A DNA stretch of 64,000 bases from Candidatus Thorarchaeota archaeon (lineage in GTDB: Archaea; Asgardarchaeota; Thorarchaeia; Thorarchaeales; Thorarchaeaceae), in the NCBI GenBank assembly GCA_046482545.1, contig JAWOEX010000010.1:96001-160000 (forward strand), written 5' to 3'. The position numbers and the translations under genes were made by a program. The notes beneath the pieces are model-generated. The model saw only the letters and a program-made list of their open reading frames with translations, searched no databases and was not told where the DNA came from. Positions 12,949-64,000 of the stretch are shown here, piece after piece (the first letter of the stretch is position 1; every line of letters starts with the position of its first letter).

Positions 12949-14097
12949 ATGACCTCACGAATGACTCATCTTCACTGTCCAAACTGTGGAAAGAAATACA
13001 AGGCTGAACCCGGAATTTCATACTGCTCATGCGGCTCTCCCATTTTTGCACAATATGATATCAAAGCTGTTTCGGAGGATATTGCAAACAATGATTTCCC
13101 CGGAAGGGAGAATTCGATGTGGAGATATGCCAGTCTGTTACCTGTTGACTCGCGAAGAGCTGTCACATTGGGTGAAGGTTGGACTCCTTTACTTTCATCA
13201 AAACGTATCCATGAATACATGGGCCTAGAATCGGTCTATATCAAGCAAGAATCGCAAAACCCTACGTTGAGCTTCAAAGATCGTGGACTCAGTGCCGCTA
13301 TCTCCAAACACACTCAACTTCGGAGCAACCATTTTGTAATTCCATCAGCAGGTAATGCAGCCATATCCATGTCAGCTTATGCTGCAGCTGCTGGGGCTCT
13401 AGCGACAGTTTACATGCCTGAAAATACACATGAGTCATTTTTCCAAGCTTGTTCCCAATATGGAACAGAAGTCATTGCTGTGAAAGGAACTATCGCAGAT
13501 TGCGGTACAGCGGTACAGAAAAATGAGGGGGTTTGGACCGATATCTCAACAACAAAAGAGCCATTTCGGGTGGAAGGTAAGAAAACACTAGGTTTCGAAA
13601 TATGTGAACAGATGAACTGGTCACTTCCTGAAGTGATTATCTGTCCTACCGGCGGAGGAACCGCACTTCTCGGTATATGGAAAGGAATACAGGAGCTTGA
13701 GAATGTGGGACTCATCGATGGGACCCGGCCCCGTATGTTTGCAGCGCAGAGTGATGGTTGTGCGCCCGTCGTCCGAGCGTTCAAAGCCGGATCCAAGACA
13801 ATTGAGCCTTGGGAAGATAGTGAGACAAAGGCCTTAGGTCTGCGTGTTCCAAAACCATTCGCAGATGAATTGATTCTAGATATACTGCGAGAGTCAGAAG
13901 GAGGAGCAGTAGCAGTAGATGAAAAATCGATTGGAAAAACTAGACGATTAGTAGCAGAAGACGAGGGTATTGATATGTGCCCCGAAGCTGCGGTGGCTAT
14001 CGCTGGAGCAAAGAAACTTGTTGAACAGAGAAACATAGACAAGAATGAAGATGTCGTGGTTCTGAACACCGGTTCAGGGGTCAGATATCCAAGCTAG
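12949..14097 (+). CDS. thrC: Threonine synthase-like PLP enzyme
   Basis: LGEGWTPL, NPTLSFKDRG (PLP lysine), SAGNA, EGKKT, PTGGG and NTGSG motifs. Confidence 0.8.
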   Translation: MTSRMTHLHCPNCGKKYKAEPGISYCSCGSPIFAQYDIKAVSEDIANNDFPGRENSMWRYASLLPVDSRRAVTLGEGWTPLLSSKRIHEYMGLESVYIKQESQNPTLSFKDRGLSAAISKHTQLRSNHFVIPSAGNAAISMSAYAAAAGALATVYMPENTHESFFQACSQYGTEVIAVKGTIADCGTAVQKNEGVWTDISTTKEPFRVEGKKTLGFEICEQMNWSLPEVIICPTGGGTALLGIWKGIQELENVGLIDGTRPRMFAAQSDGCAPVVRAFKAGSKTIEPWEDSETKALGLRVPKPFADELILDILRESEGGAVAVDEKSIGKTRRLVAEDEGIDMCPEAAVAIAGAKKLVEQRNIDKNEDVVVLNTGSGVRYPS

Positions 14098-14735
14098 GTT
14101 TTATTTGGCAGGTGGTCAAGAATAAATCTCAAATCATTCTCTTTTATTACAACGTCAGCTGCTTCTGCTACTTCGTCATCTTCCGGACAAAACGCTATTG
14201 AAAGTCCCACATGAGAAAAAGCGCTGACATCATTTTTCCCATCACCTACGTATGCGGTTTGTTCTAGTGGAACAGCAAAGCGATTAGCGATTTGTTGGAT
14301 TAGACTACCCTTCTCCCCCCATTCGACACGCACATCCACTTCACCTGTAATCTTACCATCCTCGTGTAGTAAGCGATTTGTCATAACACAGTCTATGCCT
14401 AAACGATTTCCGACATGTTCTGCTACTATATCTAACCCTCCAGATATGATGGCCAACTCAGCCCCCGCATCCTTGAGAGCTTCAACTGTCTCCATCGCCC
14501 CCGGAGTCAAGTCGGATGTCTTCGCTAATTCTGCTGCATCTTCAATTTTTTTGCCTTTCCATAATGATGCATCTAGAGTTGCCCATTGTTTATAGTTAAT
14601 ATCACCAGCGAAGTACCGATTGAAATACGCCTTACCTTCAGCTTGGGTTCCAAAATGCTCGTGCAGTCTCCACCAGATAGAGGAATGGGTTGTAAGAGTG
14701 CCATCAACATCAAACACTACAAGGCGTATTGTCAT
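14094..14735 (-). CDS. serB: HAD-IB phosphatase, phosphoserine phosphatase-like
   Basis: FDVDGTL, ISGG and GDGKND motifs. Confidence 0.8.
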   Translation of the reverse strand: MTIRLVVFDVDGTLTTHSSIWWRLHEHFGTQAEGKAYFNRYFAGDINYKQWATLDASLWKGKKIEDAAELAKTSDLTPGAMETVEALKDAGAELAIISGGLDIVAEHVGNRLGIDCVMTNRLLHEDGKITGEVDVRVEWGEKGSLIQQIANRFAVPLEQTAYVGDGKNDVSAFSHVGLSIAFCPEDDEVAEAADVVIKENDLRFILDHLPNKT

Positions 14736-14766
14736 TTATTATCCCGTACCAAATCACAAATCAGTA

Positions 14767-15417
14767 TTATGAACTTCGCTCTCGTTCAGTGCGTGCTTCT
14801 TCTTCCAACTCTAGTAGAAGCTCCTCAACCCTATTAGAAGCAGCCTCATTTCGTTGCTTCACAGCCGCCTGTTGCTTCTCGACCGATGGAACAGCAGTTT
14901 TTTTCTCCATAAGAACTTCGGCTTCAATATTGCTCAGCCGTTTCTCAATCTGTTCTTCTTCCGCAATAGTTGTTCCTGACCCAACTAAATCCTCTGATAG
15001 GAGCTCACTCGATATGGACACTCGCTCCAGAGAATCTGAGAGTTTATCCATTTCTTCCTGAATTTCAGCAGGTGAAAGCATATCCCGAGCTTGATTCAAT
15101 GCCCGGTTTGCAGTGCGAAGGGTTTTGAGAATCCTGGTCTGATCGCTAGATTCTTCTATGCTCATCAATGCAGATTGAAGAGTCTGGAATTGCTGCTGAT
15201 ACCTACCAAGTCTCTTCTCAAGGTCAACCGCTACTCCAAGATGAGTTCTGGCTACGCTTTTGTTTCCTTGTTTTACAGCCTTCTTCGCTGCACGATGCTC
15301 CTCGGAAATACGGGTTTCGAGCTTCCTTATGCGGAGAGTGATAGCGTTCATAGTCCCTTTAATCTCTAGAATTCCTCTCTCGGCATCAACTTCCTTCTTG
15401 CCGCTTAGGAAACCCAT
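14767..15417 (-). CDS. ESCRT-III Snf7-family protein
   Basis: MGFLSGKK start, basic helical hairpin (AKKAVKQGNKSVARTHL), LKTLRTANRAL, acidic C-terminal half; typical Snf7 layout. Confidence 0.8.
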   Translation of the reverse strand: MGFLSGKKEVDAERGILEIKGTMNAITLRIRKLETRISEEHRAAKKAVKQGNKSVARTHLGVAVDLEKRLGRYQQQFQTLQSALMSIEESSDQTRILKTLRTANRALNQARDMLSPAEIQEEMDKLSDSLERVSISSELLSEDLVGSGTTIAEEEQIEKRLSNIEAEVLMEKKTAVPSVEKQQAAVKQRNEAASNRVEELLLELEEEARTERERSS

Positions 15418-49685: not shown

Positions 49686-50088
49686 TCATAGTTTTCCTCC
49701 ACAATTCTCGCAATACAATCTACCTAGTTCGTTCTTGGTTCCCCAATGAGGGCAAACGACAAGATACTTCTCAGTCCTGATTTCTCGTTCGGTAATTCGA
49801 GACTTTTTCAGGCTCATGTGGTGTCCTTCCTCCACTATCCTTGGTTCTAAAGGAGTATGCTACACCAATTGCTAGGACCCCATCCATCAGCATGAGACCA
49901 ATAACAAGCTCATCTGAAGTGATAGGATATCCCTCACCATTGCTGTCAGTTGTTACTTCCTTGCCGTCATCCGTTTCGTCTGTGGTTGTCCCAGCTTGTG
50001 TTGCGGTGGTCGTAGTTGTTGTGGTTTCAGTAGTTGCAGTAATATCTGCCGTTCTGATAACCCGTTTCTTACAGTTGGGTGAACTCAA
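49686..50088 (-). pseudogene. Decayed C-terminal remnant of a surface protein (Thr linker-TM-zinc ribbon)
   Basis: Thr-rich linker, TM with an Asp, frameshift into TEREIRTEKYLVVCPHWG..CENCGGKL (Trp in place of Cys); no N-terminal domain. Confidence 0.6.
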
Positions 50089-50191: not shown

Positions 50192-51139
50192 ATGTCTGAA
50201 AGTCAGAGATGCAAGTGGCTTGATAGAATCAAGAACGGTTATGCATGCAAAATCCGCAAGCAAGTGCTTCCCTTAGCTGAGGTAACTTCAAAATGCTCCA
50301 AAGCGAAGCTCGCCAAGCTTTGTGTAGGTGCCTATAAAGCCTTGACCGAAGCAGAAGAAGCCGGTCAGAAAAAGAGCACTGATACATTTCCTTGGTTGCT
50401 TCAGGCAGCACGAAACTTCCAGCAACTAGATGAAAAGGACAATGCGATTTTGGCCTTTCGAAGAGGGGTGAATCTCGCCGCGGAAATGGGTCTTGTTGCA
50501 AGAGGATACGACCTTTTCAGACAAGCACGGGAGCTCTTTGAGAGTGGGGTAGATGCCTCTGATGAAGATATTGAACAGATAAAGAAGAGACTTGCCGAGG
50601 CAGGATGGAAATTGATTGAATCAGCTGAGAGAGTCTCCGAACGGGATGTACAAGCAGACCTTCAAGCGGAATTGAAGGCGAGCATCATGGGAGGTCTAAG
50701 CCTAAAGACAGTTGAAAGAGAAGAGGAGGAGCATTTCGTCGTGGTCGACAGGAGAGAACTCTATGCAAAGAAATCAGAGGAATACCGTGAAGGTGCTCAG
50801 AAGTACTTGGAATCAGGCATAGATCACAATGCTATCCTGTTTGCCTGTATGGCCTCAGTCGCGGACCTGATGATGGGGAATGCGAAACGGGGATTAGATT
50901 ATCTCAAAGAATTTGCCAAATCTGAGGGGTTAAAACAAAAGCTACGAAACAACGTTTGTTTCAAATGGGTCAAACTTCTCTTCAAAGGTGCTATAGAGCA
51001 TGACATAGAGGCATTAGATCAAGCACGAACGGTCTTTCTGCAGGTCCCATTCGCTTTCAAGAATGATAGCGAATTCGGTAGACGCGTGATGGATAGCATT
51101 TACAGAAAAGTTAACGAGGAATCCGAAGTTTCGAAATGA
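50192..51139 (+). CDS. Alpha-solenoid/TPR-like protein with Cys-containing N-terminus
   Basis: Repeating amphipathic helices; four Cys in the first 45 aa. Confidence 0.6.
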   Translation: MSESQRCKWLDRIKNGYACKIRKQVLPLAEVTSKCSKAKLAKLCVGAYKALTEAEEAGQKKSTDTFPWLLQAARNFQQLDEKDNAILAFRRGVNLAAEMGLVARGYDLFRQARELFESGVDASDEDIEQIKKRLAEAGWKLIESAERVSERDVQADLQAELKASIMGGLSLKTVEREEEEHFVVVDRRELYAKKSEEYREGAQKYLESGIDHNAILFACMASVADLMMGNAKRGLDYLKEFAKSEGLKQKLRNNVCFKWVKLLFKGAIEHDIEALDQARTVFLQVPFAFKNDSEFGRRVMDSIYRKVNEESEVSK

Positions 51140-52460
51140 AAAATCCATTCGTTTTGTCAATATGTGGAAATGGACGGCGTACCTTGTCACTACACTTGAA
51201 TCCTGCATACCCTCGAGAACAATCCAAATCAATATCAACTAGCTCAATGTTGTGTGAATTCATCGCTGAGTCAATCTGGGACTCACCTTCGTGGGGTAAT
51301 AGCGAACATGTAGCATAAAGAATCTCGACTCCAGGAGAGTCTTTGAATGCCGTGATGATAGAATCAAGTATCTTGTGCTGAACAGTCATCATGGTGGAAA
51401 GATACTCTTTGTTCAGTCGCCATTTGTAGGATGGATCGCGCTGAAGAATGCCAGTAGAAGTGCAAGGAGCGTCGATCAGAATCTTGTCGATATTCCGAAC
51501 TGGAGGGTACGAAGCATCGGCCAGAAGCCATTGAGAAGAATCGCATCCCATCTCTCGGCATCTGTTGTGTCCAAGACGCATGCGCTCGGGATAGACATCG
51601 CTGGCTACCAATCTGCCCCTTGACCCAAGTATCTCAGCGATTAGCTGTGTTTTCATTCCAGGGGCTGCACATGAATCCCAGACTGTATCATTCTTGTTTG
51701 GTGCGAGAACATCGACTGCAATCACACTTGCCTTATCATGAATTAGTAGCCGGCCATCTTGAAAAATCTCGGACTGGACTACCTTGTCAATTCCCTCCGT
51801 AACATGATATAAATTCGCAAAGTCTTCATCGGGCACGAATCTGACATCAGTGTTCTTCATTAAATCCGTTCGATTCTCTTCTGGTACAAGCAAGCGGTTT
51901 ACTCGGACGTAATGCTCGGGAGTAGCGTTGTTTGCTTTCATCAGCTCGATAGCTTCCCTTTCAGGAAGATGTTCCAGAAGTGTGTGCACCATAAAGGTTG
52001 GATGTGATAGCCTAATACTTAGTTGACCTACACGATCAAAATGGGCAATTGCATCTTCGACATCAAGTGTGAGGGCCCTCCGAATAGCTTCTGTCAGCTC
52101 ATCCCCATTTTCCAGATACTGGTTTTTTAGGGTCTTGAACGAAACTCGCAACCATCGTCCCTCAAAAATAGCCAAGCGTAACATTGCTCTTCTGGGTATC
52201 GATAAGGAGCTAGGGCTTCGGTTTCTCAATACCCTCGCTATGATGAAATCAATCGTATTGAGGCGCTTGAGAACCCCCAATACAAGCATATTCAGAGATG
52301 CCGCTTGCGCACCAGAAAGACCTGTCCTCTTAGCTGTATCTCGCAGTATCGTTCTTGCTGATGCTGAAATCCTTTCATATCTTGAAAGTGTTGAAACCGC
52401 AAGATTTCGAATTCTCGAGTCAGGGCTGATCGCATTCGAACTCAAATTCGTCACATTCAC
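51111..52460 (-). CDS. RsmB/Sun-family RNA m5C methyltransferase with NusB-like domain
   Basis: DSCAAPGMKT, DAPCTSTG, YATCS and GFFI motifs. Confidence 0.9.
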   Translation of the reverse strand: MNVTNLSSNAISPDSRIRNLAVSTLSRYERISASARTILRDTAKRTGLSGAQAASLNMLVLGVLKRLNTIDFIIARVLRNRSPSSLSIPRRAMLRLAIFEGRWLRVSFKTLKNQYLENGDELTEAIRRALTLDVEDAIAHFDRVGQLSIRLSHPTFMVHTLLEHLPEREAIELMKANNATPEHYVRVNRLLVPEENRTDLMKNTDVRFVPDEDFANLYHVTEGIDKVVQSEIFQDGRLLIHDKASVIAVDVLAPNKNDTVWDSCAAPGMKTQLIAEILGSRGRLVASDVYPERMRLGHNRCREMGCDSSQWLLADASYPPVRNIDKILIDAPCTSTGILQRDPSYKWRLNKEYLSTMMTVQHKILDSIITAFKDSPGVEILYATCSLLPHEGESQIDSAMNSHNIELVDIDLDCSRGYAGFKCSDKVRRPFPHIDKTNGFFISKLRIPR

Positions 52461-54127
52461 AGGTTTGGGCTATTTGGGCCGCTGTGCACGTACTTCATAC
52501 GGGAGAGCATAACGGGGAAAAACTTCCCACCGATGATGCCAGAATCCTTGTATCCGCCCAGATGTGGCATATGGGGGTCGAAGTACAAATGATCCTGATT
52601 AATAGTCACACCGGCTGCTTCAATGCCTTTGGTCCACTTCTGAATAACCGATTCATCTTCAGTAAACACCGAAGAACGTAAGCCAAAACGGGAAGCATTG
52701 GCGATGGAAATTGCTTGATCAACGCTGCTAACTGAGAGAACTGGCAGAGCTGGAGCAAATACTTCTTCTCGCATAATGGCCATATCCTGTTTGACATTTG
52801 TCAGGACAGTGGGCTCGTAGAACAGGCCAGCAGGGTCTTCCTCGCTCAGATAATTAAGACGTCGTCCACCCGTAACAACTTCCGCGCCTTTGGCTCGGGC
52901 ATCTTTCATTTGGTTCAGTAAACCGTAGAGCGCATTGATACCAAGAGGAGGTAGATCAGTTTCGGGATTTGAGGGGCGACCAACGTTCAGCTTTCTTGCT
53001 TCCTCCACAACCCGCTCAACTAAATCGTCATGAAGATCCTCTTGGACCAGCAATCTCTTGATAGCCATACAAGCTTGACCACTTCCGAGATATCTTCCTT
53101 TAACAATCATCCGAGCGGCAAAGTCGAGGTCAACATCACGCCCCCAAACAAGACAGGCGTCGCTTCCAGCCAGTTCAGGAGCCATTTGGATCCTTCTAGA
53201 CAAAGCCTTCGACCAAAGCTGAATACCTGTATCACTATCACCATACCAGACAATTGCGCTTGTTCGGGAATCATCCATGAATCTCTTCATGAGCTCCTTG
53301 CCGCCGCCAGTCAGAACCTGTACCATCGCTTTCGGAAAGCCCATTTCCAAGAAACGGTTCATGAACACCCGACCCAAGAGTATGGTGCTCAGAGGGACCT
53401 TGCTTGGCGGCTTGATAATAGTGGCATTTCCAGCCAGAATCGATGAGGTTATGCTCAGAATCCCCAAAGCGAGAGGTGAATTGTAGGGGGTGAAGAGACA
53501 AGCTACTCCGTAAGGCTCTCTGAAGCGATAGTTATTCCCTCCATCACGGCCCGGGTCTTCTTGGATATCAAGCTGCTCAGCCCAGATTTCAAAGGTTTCC
53601 CTTTCCAGATATTCAGTAAACATATCCCACGTCCATTCAAATGTCTTGATAGGGACACCCTCTTTGATAGAAACTTCACGGACTTCTTGGAACCTCTCTT
53701 TCACATCAAGGCCCGCTTTGTAGAGACCTTCAACCCTGTCTTCAATTGTGAGACCGTTTCCCGAAGTCTTGAGAGGGTTGAAGAGCTGTTTATGGTCGCG
53801 CACACCCACACCTAGCGCTTCGTCGATGTCCTTTTCTCGAGAGAGGCATACTTGAGCATACATAACCTCCTCCAACTCATCTTTCGAATATTCCGGTACG
53901 CCATGATGCTTTCTGTAGTCGCGGAGATACCTCATAGCCCCCTGATTGGATGGGATGAGCCAAGGTAACTTTGTGAAGGCTAATCTCTCAAATGTAGAAG
54001 CTTCTTGCAGCTGGAGTGCTATGGCTAATCCAGGATCAGCTACAACTGCATCCATATCTGGGAATCTTACGTAGTTTCCTGTATCTACAGTATGAGAATC
54101 AACCAAAATGGGGTAAAGGCTCATCAC
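52457..54127 (-). CDS. Aldehyde dehydrogenase family protein (divergent)
   Basis: PYNSP, PELAG, SGQAC (catalytic Cys), EEVFAP and GGYKDSG motifs. Confidence 0.85.
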   Translation of the reverse strand: MMSLYPILVDSHTVDTGNYVRFPDMDAVVADPGLAIALQLQEASTFERLAFTKLPWLIPSNQGAMRYLRDYRKHHGVPEYSKDELEEVMYAQVCLSREKDIDEALGVGVRDHKQLFNPLKTSGNGLTIEDRVEGLYKAGLDVKERFQEVREVSIKEGVPIKTFEWTWDMFTEYLERETFEIWAEQLDIQEDPGRDGGNNYRFREPYGVACLFTPYNSPLALGILSITSSILAGNATIIKPPSKVPLSTILLGRVFMNRFLEMGFPKAMVQVLTGGGKELMKRFMDDSRTSAIVWYGDSDTGIQLWSKALSRRIQMAPELAGSDACLVWGRDVDLDFAARMIVKGRYLGSGQACMAIKRLLVQEDLHDDLVERVVEEARKLNVGRPSNPETDLPPLGINALYGLLNQMKDARAKGAEVVTGGRRLNYLSEEDPAGLFYEPTVLTNVKQDMAIMREEVFAPALPVLSVSSVDQAISIANASRFGLRSSVFTEDESVIQKWTKGIEAAGVTINQDHLYFDPHMPHLGGYKDSGIIGGKFFPVMLSRMKYVHSGPNSPNL

Positions 54128-54188
54128 TAATCCTCTTCTAGCTTCTCAAGTCATAACGGCAATACAGCAGCTCTAAGAATATTTCGGC

Positions 54189-54677
54189 CTAGTCCAATGG
54201 CCTTTCGTACATCTGAACTAGCATACCATCTGTTTGTTCATAAGGTTCGCCCCATGGTTTGAAGCCGAATTTCTCCATCAATCGTTCGCCTACCTCATAT
54301 CCAGCTAGAATGTTACAGTAATTCCTTTCACAACCATGCTCGCGTCCGTACTCAGCAAACTGTTTGTACATGGCAGATGCCAACCCCGACCCACAGCACT
54401 CAGGTGCCACTGTCTGATGCTCTCCGTACAGTCCCTTGTCGGTAATCTTTGCTTTGTATACGCCCACTATTTTCCCTCTGAGTCTGCTGCCGAAGTAGTG
54501 GTACCCTTCGTGCATTTCTTCAATGATTTGCTCCGGTTCATAAGCTCGTGATTCCCGCCAGTGCTTCGGATAGACCTTTGCCGTCGGCCAGACCTCTTTA
54601 AACAGCTCCGAGATTTCCTCAGCATCTTCTTCATCGAATTCGACTATTACAATCTCGTCAGCTGGAATATGAGCCAT
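54189..54677 (-). CDS. GNAT acetyltransferase
   Basis: V.PE..GSGLA acetyl-CoA motif and KFGF. Confidence 0.8.
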   Translation of the reverse strand: MAHIPADEIVIVEFDEEDAEEISELFKEVWPTAKVYPKHWRESRAYEPEQIIEEMHEGYHYFGSRLRGKIVGVYKAKITDKGLYGEHQTVAPECCGSGLASAMYKQFAEYGREHGCERNYCNILAGYEVGERLMEKFGFKPWGEPYEQTDGMLVQMYERPLD

Positions 54678-54733
54678 GGGATGCTAGTCTCCCATTCTTT
54701 ATGAATGAGAACGTGCTCATAAATGAAATGGAA

Positions 54734-55858
54734 TTAACAATAGATTTTTGCCCAAGCGTATGCTTCTTGGATGGGGGTGCAAGCACCGCATTTGTGGCAC
54801 CCAGCAACGGTTTCCTTCGGGTTAAGGTTATATTGGAATAGAATTTTCCCCACATTCTTGTAAAATTCCAGAGTTTCATCAAGATTCGAAATATAAGAGG
54901 GGCGGTAATCTTTCAGCTCACTCCGATAAGCTGGGCGTACTGGAGCTACAACCGGAAGAACACCCATTTTGGCAATTTTTCTCATGAATCGCAATATGGA
55001 TTCGTGATTTTCACCAAAACCATGAAGCAAAAATGTGCTCACATGACCTCGTTCAAAGTGTTCTAATGCGTATTCCCAGCTCTTCAGGTATAGCTGGACT
55101 GTTCCGTGTTCAGCCTTCCCGGGGCAGATTCGCTTTCTCAGCTCTTCGTCAGCAATTTCAAGATGCATACCAAGAGCGTCAGCTCCTGCTTCGGATACGC
55201 GGGATATGTAGGAATTCTGTTTCGGCGGCTCAAATTGCACACCTATGGGGATGTCACTAATTTCTCGAATCGCCCGGATTGTCTTCTCCATCCGTAAAGC
55301 ACCCATGTCATCCGAAGGGGGAGTTCCTGTTGTTAGAAGTACATCTTTTGCTACACCTTCATTTTCAGCTTCAGCCACTACTTCTGCTAGTTGAGAAGAT
55401 GTTTTCTCCAAGAGTGTGTTACCATTCCTGTATGATAGCGGAATGGTACAGAACTGGCATTGAGTGCCACACTCCCAGTATCTGCAGGTTTGGTACAAGG
55501 TTGTAGCAAGAGTCCCCGTACCATGAAGAAGCGCAATCTTCCGATATGGGACCCCGTCGTCTGTTTTCTTCTCATAGAATCTTGGATGGGGAACCATTTG
55601 GAGTTCAACCATATCATCATAGACCCATACCATCGGGTCTTCAGTGGCCTCTAGAGGAGCAGAACCGTATTCGCTAGCTTCATTCCCCCGTCTTATTGGA
55701 ATCCCACAAGTAGTCCCATTGGGTAGGATGAAATATCGACCTTTGACAGGGCCAGCTCCACCCGTTCTTCCACCATATTCTTCGGGCGGAAGTGTGGCTC
55801 CTTCAGTAAGAAGGCGAGCTTTCAAACGAAGGACACGTTCTGGATCCATTGAACTCAC
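54734..55858 (-). CDS. Radical SAM protein, MSMEG_0568/LipS1-like
   Basis: GRTGGAGP, LATT..QTC-x8-C-x2-C, LTTGT, PGKA and C-terminal AGCHKCGAC. Confidence 0.8.
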   Translation of the reverse strand: MSSMDPERVLRLKARLLTEGATLPPEEYGGRTGGAGPVKGRYFILPNGTTCGIPIRRGNEASEYGSAPLEATEDPMVWVYDDMVELQMVPHPRFYEKKTDDGVPYRKIALLHGTGTLATTLYQTCRYWECGTQCQFCTIPLSYRNGNTLLEKTSSQLAEVVAEAENEGVAKDVLLTTGTPPSDDMGALRMEKTIRAIREISDIPIGVQFEPPKQNSYISRVSEAGADALGMHLEIADEELRKRICPGKAEHGTVQLYLKSWEYALEHFERGHVSTFLLHGFGENHESILRFMRKIAKMGVLPVVAPVRPAYRSELKDYRPSYISNLDETLEFYKNVGKILFQYNLNPKETVAGCHKCGACTPIQEAYAWAKIYC

Positions 55859-55878
55859 ACATTCTTTTCTCTGTAGCC

Positions 55879-57012
55879 CTAATCTCTCTTAGCTTTCCGG
55901 CTATCTGATGAGCTATTCATAGCTTTGAGTACGACCTCGGGTAAATCAAGAACTTGAATTGCTTCTCCTGCCTGTCTGGCCAACATGTTTTTGCAGAACG
56001 GGCAAGCCGTAACCAGAACATCCGCTCCTGTCCTAGCAGCTTCAGAAACTCGCTCCTGACCGATATTGCCCGCATGATCAGGAAAAAGCGTCCTCAATCC
56101 TGCACCATTTCCACAGCATAAGGAATCATCACGGTTGCGCTCCATTTCATGGATACCGTTTGAACTGACCGCGTTTAGAGCTTGCCTTGGTTCTTCATAG
56201 ATGCCCATATGTCGACCCAAATGGCAAGGGTCATGATAGGTCAGAGAGGTATCGGTCATCTCGATATCAATCTCGTCCATATTCTCACTTAGAAACTGGC
56301 TGATGTGTTGCACTGGTTTATTGATTTCAAGCCCCTGTTCTGCATAATCAAGAGAAAGCGCTTTGTAACAACCAGGACAGGTCACGACAATCACTGAAGC
56401 GTCAATAGCATTGAGAATCTCAGCATTGTGTTCTGCTTGTTCAAGAGCTTCATTTCTGAAGCCAGTTCTGAACAGAGGAGAGGCGCAACACCACTCCTCA
56501 TCTGTAATGATAACGTCGTAGTGTAGATGTGACAGCAAATCCACTGTCGCTTCTGCAATTTCCCGTTCTCTGTATACAGCAGTACATCCTGTAAAATAGA
56601 TAACACGTTCTTTTCCGTCCTCTTTAGATTCTAGCCAATCATTGCGTTTGGAATGCGGCTCACCGAAGGGATTATGATCTGTAAGAACGGCATCTACCAT
56701 AGAATCAAGTGCGGGGGGATATCGTTTCTCATCCACTAGTTCAACCCTGACTTTTTCCACAATGTCAGCTATGTCAATCTCCGGCAAACACCATGTCAAA
56801 CAATTGGAGCACTCCAAACACTGATACAGAACTTCAATGCCCCGCTCATCCAGAGAACGTGTTCCTGTAACATGTTGATGAATGAGAAGAGCTCTTCCGT
56901 GAGGGGTTGGAGAATCCGAACGCCACGAAATGAAAGTCGGACAAGCATGTCTGCAAAGCTTGGGACACGCTGCGCACATCCGCACATCTTCCTGTGACTC
57001 TTCAGATAGCAT
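55879..57012 (-). CDS. Fe-S oxidoreductase, HdrD/GlpC-like with two CCG domains
   Basis: CAACPKLCRHACP, CLECSNC...CL, FTGC, CCA, YHDPCHLGR, CCG and ACPFC motifs. Confidence 0.88.
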   Translation of the reverse strand: MLSEESQEDVRMCAACPKLCRHACPTFISWRSDSPTPHGRALLIHQHVTGTRSLDERGIEVLYQCLECSNCLTWCLPEIDIADIVEKVRVELVDEKRYPPALDSMVDAVLTDHNPFGEPHSKRNDWLESKEDGKERVIYFTGCTAVYREREIAEATVDLLSHLHYDVIITDEEWCCASPLFRTGFRNEALEQAEHNAEILNAIDASVIVVTCPGCYKALSLDYAEQGLEINKPVQHISQFLSENMDEIDIEMTDTSLTYHDPCHLGRHMGIYEEPRQALNAVSSNGIHEMERNRDDSLCCGNGAGLRTLFPDHAGNIGQERVSEAARTGADVLVTACPFCKNMLARQAGEAIQVLDLPEVVLKAMNSSSDSRKAKRD

Positions 57013-58436
57013 TAGCGCACCCCCAACCCGAGCTTGCCGGGGTTCATAATGCCATTCGGATCAAGCTCATCCTTGATTTTCTTCAATACCCCAAATCCTG
57101 ATTCCAACTCATCCTCAACATACGTGCTCCGAAGGATCCCAACCCCATGCTGATGACTCATCGTTCCGCCATTCTTCAAGCATGCTTCAACACCGTCATC
57201 CCAGATTTTCTCATAGGTATTCCAAGCGGTTTCTGCATCGGGTTGTGAGCTGAAGAAAATCATGTAGATGGACCCCCCATTTTCATACATGTGGCTGAAG
57301 TGTGAAAGGACAAATGCTCCATGTTTTTCCATGGCCTCTTTCATACCATGATAAACATCCTCAAGGCAATCGTAAGTGGCTACAATGTCAATTGTATCAC
57401 CAATGGCATAACCACCGGTAGTGAGCTTTGTCGGGTAATACATATCGTAGCGGTGCTCCCACCAGTATTGTGAAGGCTCAACACCGAAGTCTTCACCACC
57501 TTCTTCAAGATAGATTTCTGTGCTGACCTGTTCATCAAGTTCAACCTGCTCTAGACGGCCATCAAAAGCCAGCAATAGCATGCAATCACCCTCAGGAACA
57601 TCAAAGCGTGTAGAAATGTGCATTGCGGTGTCCTCCGGGTCATATAGTCTGACTACTGATGGTTTAAGACCTGCTCTGAAGATACGCTTGATTGCCTGCA
57701 AACCACTATGAACATCAGGAAAGCTCATACTACGGAATCGGCGTTCCTCCGGCCTTGGGAAGAGCCTCACCGTAGCCTCAGTGATTATTCCGAGTGTTCC
57801 CTCGGATCCAATGAATAACTCACGAAGATCAGGCCCAACAGAGTGCCTAGGAACCGCCTTGCATCTCGTTATCGTACCATCAGGAAGAACAACCTTGAGT
57901 CCTAGTGTGAGGTCCTCAATTTTGCCGTACTTCGAAGACATGGATCCTCCAGACCGCGTAGCAATGAACCCGCCAAGATTAGAAGCTCTCATGGATGTAG
58001 GCGTATGACCAGTGATGTAACCGTGACGGTTGACTTCCCGCTCCAACTCGATTCCTATGATTCCAGCCTGAGCAGTCACTAGCATGGATTCCTCATCTAT
58101 GCTAAGAATCTTGTTCATCCTCTTGAGGTCTAGTTGAATACCACCATAGATAGGCAAGGTGCCACCGCATACGCCAGCTCCACCGCCTACTGGAATCACT
58201 GGAATTTTCATCTCATTCGCCAGTTTCAGAACGGCAGCTATTTCTTCCTCATCTGCAGGAAATACAACGAAATCAGCTTTGGGAAGAATCTCCCCAGCGC
58301 GAATCTTAGCCTCGCTTAGCGGCCAAGCATCGTGAGCATTGAGAATCGCATCTGTTTCCTGGGTATATACGTGCGCTTCACCAACTATTTCTACAAGAGT
58401 TTTAAGAGCTTGATTCTTGGTTTCAGCATCAATCAT
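57012..58436 (-). CDS. FAD-linked oxidase, alkyl-dihydroxyacetonephosphate synthase-like
   Basis: GHTPTS, GGFIATRSGG..S.KYGKIED, PRHSVGPD, VRLYD, GSIY and GGTMSHQHGVG motifs. Confidence 0.8.
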   Translation of the reverse strand: MIDAETKNQALKTLVEIVGEAHVYTQETDAILNAHDAWPLSEAKIRAGEILPKADFVVFPADEEEIAAVLKLANEMKIPVIPVGGGAGVCGGTLPIYGGIQLDLKRMNKILSIDEESMLVTAQAGIIGIELEREVNRHGYITGHTPTSMRASNLGGFIATRSGGSMSSKYGKIEDLTLGLKVVLPDGTITRCKAVPRHSVGPDLRELFIGSEGTLGIITEATVRLFPRPEERRFRSMSFPDVHSGLQAIKRIFRAGLKPSVVRLYDPEDTAMHISTRFDVPEGDCMLLLAFDGRLEQVELDEQVSTEIYLEEGGEDFGVEPSQYWWEHRYDMYYPTKLTTGGYAIGDTIDIVATYDCLEDVYHGMKEAMEKHGAFVLSHFSHMYENGGSIYMIFFSSQPDAETAWNTYEKIWDDGVEACLKNGGTMSHQHGVGILRSTYVEDELESGFGVLKKIKDELDPNGIMNPGKLGLGVR

Positions 58437-59685
58437 TTGAAAGTCCCTCTTCGAAAGGCAGGTATTGAGCAACGAACACACTCAAATCATCGACATCAAT
58501 GGACGAGCCACTTTTGAAAAGTCGCGCCTCCAGTTGAGCAGTACAAAGCGGACATGGAGTGACGACTCGGTCGGCATCGGTCTGTTCTATGCAGTCTATA
58601 TTCCCCTGTGTGACGGCATCAGCAACATCACCAGAATGATACGCGACAAGACCACCTCCTCCACAGCACGAGTCTTCAGCTTCTGAAAGAGAAATATCTA
58701 CACCCGGGAGACAATCAAGAATTTCCAAAGCTTCTTGCATAAGCTGTCTCGAGGTATGTCGAATAAGATGGCATGGATCATGCACAGTCACAACAAGTCT
58801 GCTTCTTCGCGTTTCTTTCGTTGTGTTTTCTCTTAGCTTATCGAGACCGATGACTTCAGTCAGATACTCAACGAGATGATAGACCGGTATGCCCCAGTGA
58901 TCGCGAGATGCCAGATAGGATAGGTTGGATGTGCACCCTGCACAAGTGGTAACAATCTTTTCAATGCCAAGATTATCGATTTTTGCCTTTAGTTCATCAG
59001 CTAGTTCTCGGGCGGTCATATCATCTCCCATCAACCTAGACGGAAGACCACAGCAACTCAATTCACCAAGTAACGTGTAGTCTACTTCAAAAAACTCGAG
59101 AACCGCCTTGCCAGCTTCTTTCACTTCTTGAGCTATTTCTTCAGCTTGGCAACCGGGATAGAAAAGAACTCCAGCGTCTTTCACAACACGGTCTGGAATG
59201 GCCGGTAATCCAAAGCGCTCTCGCCTCATATCGCGGCTTGCTTTTCTCTCTTCTTCGTCATCCCATGGCTCGAAAGCAAGATGATGCTCCAAGATGATTT
59301 CACGTACAACGTGAAGCCCTTTTGGCACTAAATCTGGCCGATGCTCGAAAATTCTAGCTCTAATGATGTTGACAATTTCAGGGATATTGACGTTCTTTGG
59401 ACATACCTCACGGCAAGTTCCGCAGCCTGTGCAAAGATAAACCATGTCACCAGTACTCCAGAATTCAGGAGATGATCTGCTCAGCTCCACAGCAATACTC
59501 CGAGGGCCAGAGAAGCGATTGACTCCTACTGCTGCAACAACCGGGCAATGATTAATACAAGTGCCACAATTTATGCAGTTCTCAATGCTTGATATAATGT
59601 CGAGTTCATCCGGTTTAAAGGGCGATATGCCCTCTTCCTGCAGGGACTCCTGAACAGTTTCATACGCTTCTTCCTCACTCATCAT
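58429..59685 (-). CDS. glpC: Anaerobic glycerol-3-phosphate dehydrogenase subunit C-like
   Basis: Two CxxCxxCxxxCP motifs plus CCG domains; ATGA overlap with the glpB stop. Confidence 0.8.
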   Translation of the reverse strand: MMSEEEAYETVQESLQEEGISPFKPDELDIISSIENCINCGTCINHCPVVAAVGVNRFSGPRSIAVELSRSSPEFWSTGDMVYLCTGCGTCREVCPKNVNIPEIVNIIRARIFEHRPDLVPKGLHVVREIILEHHLAFEPWDDEEERKASRDMRRERFGLPAIPDRVVKDAGVLFYPGCQAEEIAQEVKEAGKAVLEFFEVDYTLLGELSCCGLPSRLMGDDMTARELADELKAKIDNLGIEKIVTTCAGCTSNLSYLASRDHWGIPVYHLVEYLTEVIGLDKLRENTTKETRRSRLVVTVHDPCHLIRHTSRQLMQEALEILDCLPGVDISLSEAEDSCCGGGGLVAYHSGDVADAVTQGNIDCIEQTDADRVVTPCPLCTAQLEARLFKSGSSIDVDDLSVFVAQYLPFEEGLSND

Positions 59686-61055
59686 TCTGCACCTTCTAGA
59701 TATTGGGCCACTTGCTTCCCTGCAACATACCCAGACAATAGAGCAACTCCCAAGCCGCTTTTCTCCGTCGGATATCTGTAGCCTGCGATGACAGAACCAG
59801 CACAGAAGAAATTCTTTCCCACCGGTTTTCCGTTTCTTCCAACAGGTTTCAAAGAGCTGTCGACAGGAACACCACATCCGTACAGGGCATGGCCTTCTTC
59901 AGAAACCGCCACACGCTTTGTGAGTTCTCTCGGAGGTGTGTGGCTTGCCGACTCGTATTTTTCTGTTACAACGGGTATATCGAAAACTGTCTCGCTAAGG
60001 CCATCTTTATCACCAGCTATTCCACCGCCGATGAATTTCCCAGTCGCCAGCACAATTGCCTTTGTCTCTATACTGAGCGATCTAGCTGGTCCACTGATCT
60101 CAATTGAACGAAGATTTGACTCTTCGAACGATTTAGGTTTACATTCATAACCAATCATCAATGAGCCTCCACTTTTCTTGAACATCTCATCAAGGGACCG
60201 CTGAAGGCGCATTCCGGGTACAGAAGGCGGCAGAGCTAACAATTCGAGAACAGTAGCATCCGTAGCTTCTTCCATGTTTCTACGAATCTTATGAGGGTGC
60301 TTCAGTCCTAAAACAGACGGGAAGGCTATGTGAGTGGCACCCACAGACTCAGCTTCGTGAGTCAATTCATTAAGCATAGGCTCTAATCCGTCACCCCCAT
60401 GGTCGAAATGACGTGCTAATCCAATGGAGGAGATATTCTGTTTCGAGCCATGTGGAGAGACAGATAACTCACAATGAGCGACCTTTTGCGGCGGGATCTG
60501 ACCTGACAGCTGATTATCAACGAAGGTACGAGCCGCCACTTCAGCATCGAAATCTTGGTGACCTGAAAAGCCAGCAAAAAGAAGACAGCTATCAGAATCA
60601 GACATAAGATTACCTGGATTCATACCCTTCTGGACAAGACAAGTTGGTTTCGTCGTGCCCAGCATCGTAATAGCTTCGAAGTTGTTGTTAAGTGAGCCAT
60701 GTAGGGCCGCAGGTGATTTCTGGAGGCGATTCTTGAGGTAAGATATAGCTTCAGCAATACGGTAATTCGATTGATTGGATTCCTCACGGACAGCAGAAGA
60801 TACGTCTTCGAGGAATCCATAGGGATGAAAAGCGTGTGTACCAGCCAATGAAATCATCCCTTCGATTGGAGAAGAAAAAGGAAAACATGATTCCGGCATG
60901 TAGCCAGCAACATCAATGGCTCCCGATGAATATGCAGTTGCACTCTGTCCTTTCCTGAGTGCTACAACATCAAAGTCTGATTCTGCTGCGATGCTACCTG
61001 CAACTAAGCCGGCCATACCGCCTCCAATAACTACGAGATCACAGTCAAAATCCAT
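59682..61055 (-). CDS. glpB: Anaerobic glycerol-3-phosphate dehydrogenase subunit B
   Basis: GGGMAG, SATAYSSGAID, PPSVPGMRL, LATGKFIGGG and SGLGVA motifs. Confidence 0.88.
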   Translation of the reverse strand: MDFDCDLVVIGGGMAGLVAGSIAAESDFDVVALRKGQSATAYSSGAIDVAGYMPESCFPFSSPIEGMISLAGTHAFHPYGFLEDVSSAVREESNQSNYRIAEAISYLKNRLQKSPAALHGSLNNNFEAITMLGTTKPTCLVQKGMNPGNLMSDSDSCLLFAGFSGHQDFDAEVAARTFVDNQLSGQIPPQKVAHCELSVSPHGSKQNISSIGLARHFDHGGDGLEPMLNELTHEAESVGATHIAFPSVLGLKHPHKIRRNMEEATDATVLELLALPPSVPGMRLQRSLDEMFKKSGGSLMIGYECKPKSFEESNLRSIEISGPARSLSIETKAIVLATGKFIGGGIAGDKDGLSETVFDIPVVTEKYESASHTPPRELTKRVAVSEEGHALYGCGVPVDSSLKPVGRNGKPVGKNFFCAGSVIAGYRYPTEKSGLGVALLSGYVAGKQVAQYLEGAE

Positions 61056-62710
61056 CAGCACATTCCCTCCCATGGCTTTCGCCGATATTCAACATCTGAT
61101 CGGTCAATATTGCCCACACACGAGTATATGCCATGAACCAGCTCTTCCTGACTGAGCTGCTGTCCTCTCAAGGAAGGGCGTTTTCCCTTCCATCGTTCAG
61201 CCAAGTAATCCATGATTTCGAGTTGATGGTCGATACCGGACCAGTCCAGTTCCTTGGTAAGAATGGCTGAAGCTTTGTATGTGCAGAAGGTGCCTTGACA
61301 CGGGCCTGTGCCCAGTCGCACGCGTCTTCGCAAATCATTCAAAGAGCGGGGAAACTCTTCCTGAATAGAGTATCTAAGTTCGGCTTCCATGACCGGCTCG
61401 CATGTGCAGACAGTTGTCTTCCACTCGGGATGTGCATCCGCAAGCTCTAACACTTGCTCCGTTTCTGTCCCTCGTCTGGCTCGCATCCGCTCCACCGTAT
61501 GTTGGGAGACACCATATTCCTTAGCCAATGCCAGTACGTCAACATCGTCCGCCATCCCTGGCAAAGCTCCTGAATGGGTAGTGCATTCTCTGTCCAGTCC
61601 TAGTTTTTCGCAAACTAGGTCTGTAACAGCTTCTGCCATGTGACGACACATTACGAGTTTACCACCGGTGAAACTGAAAATCCCAGCAGCTCCTTCATCT
61701 TCATGGTCGATAATCTCATACCCACGGGTCACATCGCCTTCCGGTTTTTTCCAGTCAGCTACCAAAGGACGGACACCTTCCATCGTCCGAATTATCCGTG
61801 CATCGCGAATGGACGGAACGACCCACTCCATGCTTTTGAGTAGGTATTCAATCTCATCATGAGTGGCGACAAGCTTGTCAGGATCCTCCCATGTGTCGAG
61901 AGCGGTCGTTCCCAACAATGCTGTGTTCTCGTGAGGAAATAGGTAAATCAAGCGTCCGTCCACAGCCTTTGCTATTATGCCTACGTTCACAATCCGTCTG
62001 TCAAGAATGACGTGTGCTCCTTTGTTTGGTCTGAGATCCACATTTGCTGAAGCCATGTCCGCAACTTCAGTAGCCCATGGGCCTGAGGCGTTTACAATGC
62101 ATTTTGCAGTAACAGATTGAGTTTCTCGGGACACTCTATCAAAGAAAGTAACTCGGTTTCCATCTTCAGCCAAGGTTTCAATGTCATGTACTTCGCAATA
62201 TGTCCGGACTGATGCACCGTTCCGTTTTGCATCTATAGCTTGTAGAAGACATAACCGGAAAGGATCAATAAAGTATTCTTCAAAATAAATTGATGCGATT
62301 ATATCCGAATTCAGTTTCGGTTCTATCTTGAGTGCATCTTCGGGAGTCAAGAAAAGAACAGGTGGAACGTCTCTCGTTTCAGCTCGCTTCGAATATTCTT
62401 CTGCAAAGTTCCCACCCGTGGAGACATCGCTCATTTTCATCAACGGAGTCAGGATTGGATTCTTCATGATAAGATGCCTTGCGATTCGTTTGAAGTGCAC
62501 AACTTCTTCAGAACACATATCCACAATCTCAGGCTCATCCATATACTTGAGACCTGAGGAAATCATCCCTGCACAAGTTCCAACGGTTGCAGAAGCGATA
62601 TCGTCCCGTTCCAGTAGGAGCGTCTCAAGCCCTCTCATGGCACAGTCGCGTGCCACAGCTGTTCCGGTACTGCCGCCACCAATGACAACAACGTCATAAT
62701 CGTAGGTCAT
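61055..62710 (-). CDS. glpA: Anaerobic glycerol-3-phosphate dehydrogenase subunit A
   Basis: GGGSTG..ARDCAMRG, GVRPL, GGKL; BFD-like CTCE...R.R.GTGPCQG.FC. Confidence 0.9.
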   Translation of the reverse strand: MTYDYDVVVIGGGSTGTAVARDCAMRGLETLLLERDDIASATVGTCAGMISSGLKYMDEPEIVDMCSEEVVHFKRIARHLIMKNPILTPLMKMSDVSTGGNFAEEYSKRAETRDVPPVLFLTPEDALKIEPKLNSDIIASIYFEEYFIDPFRLCLLQAIDAKRNGASVRTYCEVHDIETLAEDGNRVTFFDRVSRETQSVTAKCIVNASGPWATEVADMASANVDLRPNKGAHVILDRRIVNVGIIAKAVDGRLIYLFPHENTALLGTTALDTWEDPDKLVATHDEIEYLLKSMEWVVPSIRDARIIRTMEGVRPLVADWKKPEGDVTRGYEIIDHEDEGAAGIFSFTGGKLVMCRHMAEAVTDLVCEKLGLDRECTTHSGALPGMADDVDVLALAKEYGVSQHTVERMRARRGTETEQVLELADAHPEWKTTVCTCEPVMEAELRYSIQEEFPRSLNDLRRRVRLGTGPCQGTFCTYKASAILTKELDWSGIDHQLEIMDYLAERWKGKRPSLRGQQLSQEELVHGIYSCVGNIDRSDVEYRRKPWEGMC

Positions 62711-62807
62711 TCTTGCTCATGTCTCCAGCTTCGGAGTCTTATTTGGATTAGCAAAGGTCCCTGTCCCTTAATAGATACAAGACTTTCGAAATGTCGAACA
62801 TTCTAAA

Positions 62808-64000
62808 CTATGAAATCAACTCGAGGATTTCGTCCATCTCTGCCATCATCAGCTTGTTGAACGTGGCAAAGCGCTGCATGTATACCTCCACGTGTTCAGA
62901 GATTGGTTCTCTGCGCTCATCAATGTGAAACATGTTGTCGACTGCTTCTTCATAGGAGCTGTAGAGCTTTGTTCCGACAGCACCAAGCATTGCAGCACCA
63001 ATGACTGTTGAATCACGAGACCTTGGAAGAACGGTTTCCTTGTTTGTGCAGTCTGCCTGTATTTGCCGCCACAAAGGTGAATTAGCTCCACCACCATCGA
63101 TTCTAAGCTCATCAAATTCTAGCTCAAGCATACCTTCCATCATTTGCACATACGATTGGATGCCGTAACCATTGGCCTCCATAATGGCACGAGCCACATG
63201 AGCCCGAGTATGATTGAAGCCGAAATTGTAGAAAATGCCCTTCTGGTACGCCATGAAAGGAAACACAACTAGTCCATCACTGCCAGCTGGGACAGACTCA
63301 GCGGTTTCGCAGATAAGCTCGTATACATCTTGATCTGTTTTATCGGCTAGACGGCGTTCCCTCTCACAGAACTGGTCGCGGTACCATCGAAAAGCGAGAC
63401 CGGTACCTGGAATAACTCCCTCAAGAATCCACTCGCCAGGTATCGCCGAAGGGTTACTGAACATTACGTACGAATCCTCGATGAAACTGTCAGTTGGTGT
63501 GGCAACGAAAGTCCCTGTGCCAGTTGTGGCTTTGACTAGACCCGATTTGATGGTGCCTGTCCCCAAAGCCGAACACTGCTGGTCTCCACTTCCCATTATG
63601 ACAGGGGTTCCTTTCTTAAGGGAAGTTCGCTTTTCAACAGAAGCTGAAATCTCTCCTATGAAGGTGCCAGGTACAACAATCTCCACAAGCTTCGATTGAG
63701 GTATCCCGGTTTCCTCGCAAAGCTCATCAGACCATTCAAGTGTGTCGTGGTCAATGGGGCCGTATCGTGCGTTAGCAGGTTCACTTACCATTCTTCCGCA
63801 CAGCTTGCTGTTGATGTATGCATCGAGATGCGCGAACTTAGTAGCCTTTTCGAAAATCTCAGGCTCATTTTGTTTGAACCAGAGGATCTTGTTAACGCTC
63901 TTGCGTGGTCCAATCTGGTCAGACATCTCTTTGGCTTTCTTTGAGGATCTATTGTCTACCCATGTGACAGTTGGAGCAAGTGGTTCATGCTCCTTGTCAA
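62808..64000 (-). CDS. FGGY-family carbohydrate kinase (N-terminus outside window)
   Basis: TWVDNR, GSGDQQ, TTGTG, DGGGANS.LW.QI.AD and GAAMLG motifs; reading frame open to the window end. Confidence 0.9.
   Translation of the reverse strand, partial: DKEHEPLAPTVTWVDNRSSKKAKEMSDQIGPRKSVNKILWFKQNEPEIFEKATKFAHLDAYINSKLCGRMVSEPANARYGPIDHDTLEWSDELCEETGIPQSKLVEIVVPGTFIGEISASVEKRTSLKKGTPVIMGSGDQQCSALGTGTIKSGLVKATTGTGTFVATPTDSFIEDSYVMFSNPSAIPGEWILEGVIPGTGLAFRWYRDQFCERERRLADKTDQDVYELICETAESVPAGSDGLVVFPFMAYQKGIFYNFGFNHTRAHVARAIMEANGYGIQSYVQMMEGMLELEFDELRIDGGGANSPLWRQIQADCTNKETVLPRSRDSTVIGAAMLGAVGTKLYSSYEEAVDNMFHIDERREPISEHVEVYMQRFATFNKLMMAEMDEILELIS

Follow-up and report, generated by a model that had tools for sequence, protein, structure and literature searches.

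A conserved Asgard operon linking a compact AGPS-like flavoprotein to a predicted Fe-S partner: a catabolic module probably acting on a modified glycerol

Which compound is processed by an archaeal operon in which a glycerol kinase-like gene and a glpABC-like set precede a flavoprotein resembling alkyldihydroxyacetonephosphate synthase (AGPS)? The question is raised by a stretch of 64,000 nucleotides (the window) from a Candidatus Thorarchaeota archaeon (GCA_046482545.1, contig JAWOEX010000010.1, positions 96,001 to 160,000), where nine genes, all on the minus strand, follow each other in the order kinase-glpA-glpB-glpC-oxidase-CCG-radical SAM (rSAM)-GNAT-aldehyde dehydrogenase (ALDH). The original prediction answered with ether lipids, either scavenged anaerobically or synthesized on sn-glycerol-3-phosphate (G3P). 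We find a real, conserved and uncharacterized catabolic module, with a core consisting of the kinase, the GlpABC-like proteins, the AGPS-like flavoprotein and the CCG protein. Its substrate is probably a modified glycerol rather than plain glycerol, and the evidence agrees less well with an ether lipid of membranes than with a small soluble compound.

The AGPS-like flavoprotein and its Fe-S partner

The oxidase contains the Pfam domains PF01565 and PF02913 and adopts a vanillyl-alcohol oxidase (VAO)-type FAD fold (predicted local distance difference test score, pLDDT, of the model 78.6). AGPS is its best match in the PDB by sequence (226 bits, against 131-160 for lactate and glycolate dehydrogenases) and provides the top Foldseek matches (TM ~0.79). 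In structural alignment with VIA-align, AGPS (Z 30.2, rmsd 3.9, 447 residues aligned) falls slightly below D-lactate dehydrogenase (Z 33.1, rmsd 3.4, 427 aligned). As modelled, the protein is a compact body with an AGPS-like active site. The AGPS-type residues recognized in the original prediction are all present, in the motifs GHTPTS (H144), RLYD (R263), GSIY (Y391) and SHQHG (H428-Q429-H430); H144, R263, Y391, H428 and H430 are equivalent to His300, Arg419, Tyr578, His615 and His617 of the Cavia enzyme, and the first three are invariant among 23 Asgard sequences. In Dictyostelium AGPS, R352 and Y508, which correspond to Arg419 and Tyr578, are important (PMC3509576). The loop at Cavia positions 615-617 reads H-Q-H in Thorarchaeota and H-H-H in most other Asgard orthologues.

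The signature of D-lactate and glycolate dehydrogenases was said to be lacking, and indeed the metal-binding motifs HAGDGN and GEHG, which together with a PPDP loop mark GlcD/Dld, are absent from the oxidase sequence. The protein scores 234 bits against TIGR00387 (GlcD), below the cut-off of 568, and a mixture-model tree of 68 sequences separates the GlcD types from the AGPS-like proteins with support of 100/100, placing the Thorarchaeota oxidase on the AGPS-like side, as had been anticipated. Together these results rule out a GlcD/Dld assignment.

On the features tested the oxidase is not a member of AGPS either. In this tree, metagenomic sequences bearing the AGPS motif stand for the AGPS clade in place of the PDB proteins; the clade is supported at 100/100 and nested within a likewise supported (100/100) clade of long bacterial enzymes, with the Thorarchaeota protein outside. 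Forcing the latter to be sister to AGPS lowers the log-likelihood by 52 with a borderline p-value in the approximately unbiased (AU) test (p-AU 0.057), so that this grouping is disfavoured, not formally rejected. The differences extend to the lipid-handling parts. AGPS alone possesses an extra gating domain at the entrance of the lipid channel, and R447 is important (PMC3509576); this arginine would map to the YxRD motif, Cavia R515. The Thorarchaeota enzyme lacks the amphipathic insert after RLxD (25 residues between positions 266-290, versus ~47 in the nearest AGPS-clade neighbour), has ~50 residues ahead of its first FAD motif, where the long types have ~100 or more, and carries T336 at the position of the second catalytic arginine, for which the invariant R329, seven residues earlier, might substitute. 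The bulky or charged residues W325, W326, H328, R329 and Y333 lie on a helix where AGPS has small ones.

The CCG gene is translationally coupled to the oxidase gene, and the two are fused in one relative (P0160). All 18 cluster cysteines are present in the CCG protein and are invariant or nearly so among 19 Asgard orthologues. The predicted oxidase-CCG complex scores 0.92 against 0.00 for the best control, with runs that agree on at least 96% of contacts and a partner pLDDT of at least 90; for comparison, 58 of 80 solved complexes attain the mark applied, as do 2 of 110 mismatched pairs. The score may stem from a resemblance to flavoprotein/Fe-S pairs of solved structure. The CCG protein is therefore predicted to bind the flavoprotein directly and to accept its electrons. 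As the lipid-gating insert, the N-terminus and the YxRD arginine of AGPS are missing and an intact Fe-S protein is predicted to bind, the flavoprotein is probably a redox enzyme. AGPS catalysis is redox-neutral overall, yet its intermediate is a reduced flavin-dihydroxyacetone phosphate (DHAP) iminium (PMC3509576); hydrolysis of this iminium would give an attached electron acceptor a role. We regard the oxidase as working like the first half of AGPS with an Fe-S acceptor; the dedicated partner speaks against the non-redox acyl/alkyl exchange that had been considered.

Related arrangements vary. Cysteine-depleted CCG-like partners, annotated as hypothetical, follow the oxidase in several bacteria (L277:11428-12552, L069:9427-10461, L070, L077 and L078). 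Elsewhere in the Thorarchaeota genome, a CCG gene beside another FAD oxidase (L067:8217-9346; G000:C9 ~14000-15150) is split into two frames (133 + 243 aa), possibly by a frameshift or an assembly error. Other family architectures (P0121, P0209, P0230, L087) comprise tandem double oxidases (~950 aa or two adjacent genes) and HAD-oxidase and PfkB-oxidase fusions.

The conserved core and its altered substrate sites

Conservation was assessed in 121 Asgard genomes, in which related genomes are not independent, so that the counts describe patterns rather than statistics. An oxidase orthologue (E<=1e-75) occurs in 72 of them, including 25 of the 27 from its own family. Sixteen other Thorarchaeota loci preserve the order from kinase to GNAT, which argues against chance. 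Other families have kinase-glpABC-oxidase-CCG, kinase-oxidase-CCG or oxidase-CCG, and in the loci read outside its own family rSAM, GNAT and ALDH never adjoin the oxidase cluster. Operon conservation, proposed earlier as a check, holds in Thorarchaeota from the kinase to GNAT and fails elsewhere for these last three genes. Being unlinked to the core in other Asgards, they are probably passengers rather than members of the pathway, although ALDH is perhaps used without being required.

The rSAM gene, found in 78/121 genomes and nearly always single-copy, is linked to the core in Thorarchaeota only; elsewhere it adjoins GNAT or an open reading frame (ORF) resembling ADP-forming acyl-CoA synthetase (L321-L328 among the loci), and GNAT accompanies it in Asgards without adjacent core genes. 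The protein resembles the MSMEG_0568 family (TIGR04043), which is marked by CxxxCxxC and a C-terminal CxxCxxC, and falls slightly below its cut-off: it scores 296.3 bits (cut-off 303.7), with Atlas features that match the family at 0.99. ALDH has intact catalytic Glu and Cys motifs, ~120 extra N-terminal residues covered by no family model, and a weak affinity to glyceraldehyde/lactaldehyde dehydrogenases as its closest relatives. It is restricted to a few Asgard families, is inverted and ~15 kb distant in G006 and G021, had no match to this query in three families whose core is complete, and occurs together with rSAM in G017, where the oxidase and GlpA are without match.

The glycerol kinase GlpK is characterized by the signature R83/E84/Y135/D245/F270 (PMC3245297). 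At these positions the operon kinase reads R/D/R/D/F (E84D, Y135R), with a deletion of ~13 residues before position 135; R83, W103, D245, Q246 and F270 are retained, and it scores highest against the LsrK, XylB and GntK models. E84 is replaced in all 16 aligned GlpK-like kinases linked to AGPS-like genes, members of two distinct clades; 7/7 canonical GlpK kinases without such a link retain it. E84 and Y135 bind the non-phosphorylated C1 hydroxyl of glycerol, so that their change fits a glycerol modified at C1, and the gained arginine suggests a polar tail on the substrate. Most glpK homologues of Loki- and Thorarchaeota were reported to be carbohydrate kinases (Manoharan et al., PMC6737245).

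GlpA is altered as well. It scores 424 bits against TIGR03377 (cut-off 553) and shows, in E. coli GlpD numbering, H50->S, R54->K and D272->A, with R317, R332 and K354 retained. Its flavin-site HxGxRY motif reads ISSGLKY versus LHSGARY, while canonical Asgard paralogues keep both His and Arg; His50 is a flavin-site residue. GlpB, at 191.9 bits, exceeds the TIGR03378 cut-off of 174.2. Four Asgard genomes (G030, G040, G060, G078) each have a second, canonical glpK-glpAB(C) operon besides the variant one, and for this reason the substrate of the variant operon is probably not glycerol. The Thorarchaeota genome itself encodes a canonical, full-signature GlpK on another contig (G000:C11:2008-3528); a second GlpA, GlpD or GpsA was not found there, and the G3P made by this kinase is left without a detected canonical GlpA, GlpD or GpsA.

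Table 1. Genes of the operon and the adjoining rsmB gene in window numbering.
Feature	Position	Strand	Remarks
FGGY kinase, GlpK-like variant	62808..64000	-	core; 489 aa; start outside window, ~64277 in window numbering
GlpA-like flavoprotein, variant	61055..62710	-	core; below TIGR03377 cut-off
GlpB	59682..61055	-	core; above TIGR03378 cut-off
GlpC-like 2x[4Fe-4S] + 2xCCG protein	58429..59685	-	core; 18/18 cluster Cys intact
Compact AGPS-like FAD enzyme, VAO fold, 474 aa	57012..58436	-	core
Second Fe-S/CCG protein, predicted flavoprotein partner	55879..57012	-	core
MSMEG_0568-like radical SAM protein	54734..55858	-	probable passenger
GNAT acetyltransferase	54189..54677	-	probable passenger
Aldehyde dehydrogenase (ALDH)	52457..54124	-	optional or passenger
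RsmB/NSUN-type RNA m5C methyltransferase	51111..52460	-	overlaps ALDH stop

The start and stop codons overlap from glpA to the CCG gene, as described before: by 1 nt for glpA/glpB (TGATG at 61055), 4 nt for glpB/glpC (ATGA), 8 nt for glpC/oxidase and 1 nt for oxidase/CCG (TAATG at 57012). Gaps of 97 nt (kinase-glpA), 20-29 nt (CCG-rSAM), 56 nt (rSAM-GNAT) and 61-64 nt (GNAT-ALDH) separate the other genes. The kinase, taken earlier as a gene of the window, is present in it and truncated by its edge (Table 1). The co-oriented run extends beyond ALDH to rsmB, with a 4-nt overlap at the ALDH stop, which shows that unrelated genes belong to the run. A scan for promoters and terminators around the kinase gave results no better than chance level.

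Just outside the window, upstream of the kinase (L002:2344-10943), a divergent metallo-beta-lactamase (MBL) hydrolase and a crotonase come first, and most Thorarchaeota loci have ORFs of similar size in this position. They are followed by nicotinate phosphoribosyltransferase-like, isochorismatase-like and DUF35-like genes, a thiolase, a second crotonase, a 3-hydroxyacyl-CoA dehydrogenase and sterol carrier protein 2 (SCP2), which together amount to a beta-oxidation block. The minus strand also carries, at 49771-50088, a short ORF that is rich in Thr, has a hydrophobic tail and resembles a surface-protein remnant.

A candidate pathway and its rivals

Our best, though tentative, reading is that the operon oxidatively removes a small, water-soluble C1 substituent, X, from a modified glycerol. 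The variant kinase would phosphorylate the free primary hydroxyl of the C1-substituted glycerol, and the variant GlpABC would oxidize C2 to give X-CH2-CO-CH2-O-P. The AGPS-like enzyme would then perform the first half of the AGPS reaction, passing from a C1 carbanion through a flavin N5 adduct and the loss of X to an iminium, and water, not a fatty alcohol, would attack this iminium to release XH, hydroxypyruvaldehyde phosphate and reduced FAD; we infer this step from the conserved residues and the known mechanism of AGPS. Finally, the bound Fe-S/CCG subunit, whose binding is predicted from the complex models, would reoxidize the FAD without oxygen. For X, methyl or other short ethers (e.g. 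left when an aldolase cleaves 3-O-methyl sugars), sulfonate (as in dihydroxypropanesulfonate, DHPS), amines and thioethers were considered. The route first proposed, from alkylglycerol through alkyl-G3P and alkyl-DHAP to cleavage, survives in its skeleton, which fits the altered kinase and GlpA, the canonical operons and the gene context; a long-chain lipid is an unlikely substrate, as the lipid-handling parts of AGPS are missing.

Bacterial relatives of the oxidase occur in comparable surroundings. Of 27 AGPS-like loci, 11 have an FGGY gene nearby, versus none of 34 GlcD-type loci. The FGGY gene is accompanied by GlpD in Caulobacter, Paraburkholderia, Novosphingobium and Microbacterium, by a GlpO/DUF1667-type dehydrogenase and a CCG-like gene in Gelria, and by a glycerol dehydrogenase or a short-chain dehydrogenase/reductase (SDR) in Roseibium and Enterococcus, as well as in Ilyobacter and the E. 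coli ygcUWE locus, which additionally have electron transfer flavoproteins (ETF). Further contexts are PdxA with a DUF1537 four-carbon acid sugar kinase, coupled to the AGPS-like gene on a Methylobacterium nodulans plasmid (L279:9953-13568), and an isomerase with FGGY and class II aldolase genes. Each of these routes could end in X-CH2-CO-CH2-O-P. The clusters often hold sugar ATP-binding cassette (ABC) or major facilitator superfamily (MFS) transporters.

Several observations weigh against the removal of a substituent. The altered residues of the substrate sites would admit a carbon-extended polyol equally well, and the variant GlpABC may serve plain G3P as well, as no other GlpA, GlpD or GpsA was found in the genome. 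The Thorarchaeota operon is without a transporter gene, and some Asgards retain kinase-oxidase-CCG without GlpABC. Finally, certain bacterial relatives (Mesorhizobium, Lentisphaeria) have lost part of the partner cysteines, and one Thorarchaeota genome is without the CCG gene at the locus.

A possible, if on balance improbable, alternative is a C4-C5 polyol or sugar acid without a leaving group, which would be phosphorylated, oxidized at C2 to a ketose 1-phosphate as by EryA/EryB in erythritol catabolism, and then oxidized at its alpha-hydroxyl by the flavoprotein-CCG pair. This would agree with the preference of the kinase for the LsrK, XylB and GntK models, with its Y135->R change, which points to a polar or anionic tail, with the slightly closer structural match to D-lactate dehydrogenase, and with the nearest bacterial oxidase branch, whose members sit in sugar clusters beside FucI-like, IolB and aldolase genes. 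However, the adduct residues of AGPS are kept family-wide, the layout of kinase, G3P dehydrogenase and oxidase also occurs with lipid kinases, and the kinase retains the R/W/D/Q/F set of GlpK. Ketose 1-phosphates, moreover, have simpler known exits through an isomerase or aldolase. The Lentisphaeria-type clusters (L078 883-8071, L069, L079, L086) comprise a FucI-like isomerase, IolB, FGGY, oxidase-CCG and a class II aldolase, and could serve O-methyl-sugar catabolism via methyl-DHAP.

In our judgement it is unlikely that long-chain 1-O-alkylglycerols with the stereochemistry of bacteria or eukaryotes are scavenged anaerobically, their fatty alcohol passing to beta-oxidation. Such scavenging shares the pathway skeleton with the removal of a small substituent and could draw on the beta-oxidation block located 0-9 kb upstream of the kinase, on the missing transporter, on the alpha/beta hydrolase that comes next after the kinase in Promethearchaeota loci, and on one compact relative clustered with CCG, a diacylglycerol (DAG)-kinase-family gene and GlpD; that case means that compactness alone does not exclude lipid. 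Against it stand the missing amphipathic insert, N-terminal extension and YxRD arginine of the oxidase, its bulky helix residues, and the ALDH gene, which is not tied to the core. The kinase is of FGGY type with a gained arginine, whereas lipid-type clusters use DAG-kinase-family enzymes, usually alongside a long AGPS-like enzyme, and in eukaryotes ACAD10 acts as the alkylglycerol kinase (PMC13596139). Likewise unlikely is an O2-independent etherase for long-chain 1-O-alkyl-DHAP formed by the flavoprotein and its Fe-S partner, through which Asgard archaea of sediments would scavenge monoalkyl ether lipids of bacteria or eukaryotes; the biosynthetic AGPS of myxobacteria and eukaryotes would in that case be derived from a catabolic family. 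Archaeal diether lipids were rejected as substrate; in these dialkyl lipids C2 is blocked and the stereochemistry is opposite. In Promethearchaeota, a specific 492-aa protein without Pfam match and with a weak alpha/alpha-toroid likeness in the Atlas is encoded upstream of the oxidase (L075:6329-7807).

It is very improbable that the locus is an ordinary operon for glycerol or G3P oxidation with an unrelated second dehydrogenase: this would accommodate the sole GlpA-like gene of the genome, a GlpB above its cut-off, and the canonical GlpK and GDPD encoded elsewhere, but neither the kinase nor GlpA conforms to the canonical signature, four Asgard genomes hold a canonical paralogous operon as well, and the same linkage is met again in other phyla.

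The remaining reading is the synthesis of G3P-based ether lipids. PF01553, PF02660 and PF07479 (PlsB/PlsC/GNPAT, PlsY, GpsA) have no match in the Thorarchaeota genome, which is 98.9% complete; among 14 control genomes, PF01553 and PF02660 were matched in 10 and 8, respectively. Geranylgeranylglyceryl phosphate synthase (GGGPS) and a glycerol-1-phosphate dehydrogenase (G1PDH) candidate were found, so that the canonical archaeal route appears to be in place and a source of acyl-DHAP is not evident from the gene content. Matches to the fatty acyl reductase (FAR) family PF07993 are partial (frames of 296-352 aa). An archaeal route to eukaryotic lipids is not compellingly supported by published trees of bacterial-type lipid genes (PMC6431249), and PEDS1 and FARAT were traced to myxobacteria, with too little signal for AGPS itself (10.1101/2025.10.10.681575). 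Synthesis by acyl/alkyl exchange in an ancestor of eukaryotic AGPS is hardly credible, despite AGPS being the best PDB and Foldseek match and the AU test falling just short of formal rejection, since no acyltransferase was found, an exchange without net redox needs no Fe-S partner, and AGPS proper is nested among long bacterial enzymes. The operon is consequently uninformative on the archaeal-to-eukaryotic lipid transition, on which it had been thought to bear.

Comparison with known systems

The compact AGPS-like family is large and includes E. coli YgcU. Databases call its proteins 'alkyldihydroxyacetonephosphate synthase', and our literature search, which covered ygcU, MSMEG_0568, anaerobic glycerol-ether cleavage and Rv2251/agpS, found no tested member or characterized compact prokaryotic one. 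A reconstruction of LUCA, the last universal common ancestor, places alkyldihydroxyacetonephosphate synthase under lipid synthesis (PMC11383801). The Thorarchaeota branch is probably a catabolic dehydrogenase, and inferences on lipid synthesis from such annotations therefore need care. If the enzyme cleaves a C-O bond, it would represent new flavin chemistry, an AGPS half-reaction coupled to Fe-S. If lipids were its substrate, it would offer an anaerobic route to ether cleavage; AGMO, which cleaves alkylglycerols, requires oxygen. The operon yields three soluble enzymes that are open to direct screening.

Compared to AGPS/ADPS (EC 2.5.1.26; PDB 4bby, 2uuu), the Thorarchaeota enzyme shares the VAO fold and the five active-site equivalents, and differs in its length of 474 aa, its position outside the AGPS clade, the absence of the gating insert, the long N-terminus and the Arg515 motif, the changes His616->Gln and Arg566->His, the Fe-S partner, and a genome without a detected acyltransferase. 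Relative to GlpABC with GlpK, the three-subunit layout, a GlpB above its cut-off, the phosphate-site residues R317/R332 with K354, and R83, W103, D245, Q246 and F270 of the kinase are shared; GlpA below its cut-off with H50S/R54K/D272A, the E84D and Y135R kinase with its deletion, and the canonical paralogues elsewhere set the operon apart. Like GlcD-GlcF and other D-lactate dehydrogenase-CCG pairs, it couples a compact VAO-fold flavoprotein to an Fe-S/CCG acceptor, though without HAGDGN and GEHG, on a branch apart (100/100) and with an FGGY kinase adjacent.

Clusters of glpD, a long AGPS-like gene and a DAG kinase gene in Actinobacteria and Leptospira (e.g. on a Kitasatospora plasmid), for which the literature search returned no characterization, have the same layout of kinase, G3P dehydrogenase and AGPS-like enzyme; in contrast, their enzyme is longer, carries a YLRD motif and is nearer to true AGPS, their kinase is of lipid type, and CCG is absent from the examples seen. 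E. coli YgcU, encoded with YgcE, YgcW and the ETF-like YgcQR/YgcNO (all uncharacterized), is 33% identical over 477 aa and has the compact motif set. Its locus likewise encodes an FGGY kinase, a dehydrogenase and an electron acceptor alongside, with an SDR in place of GlpABC, ETF in place of CCG, additional MFS transporters and a kinase from another FGGY branch.

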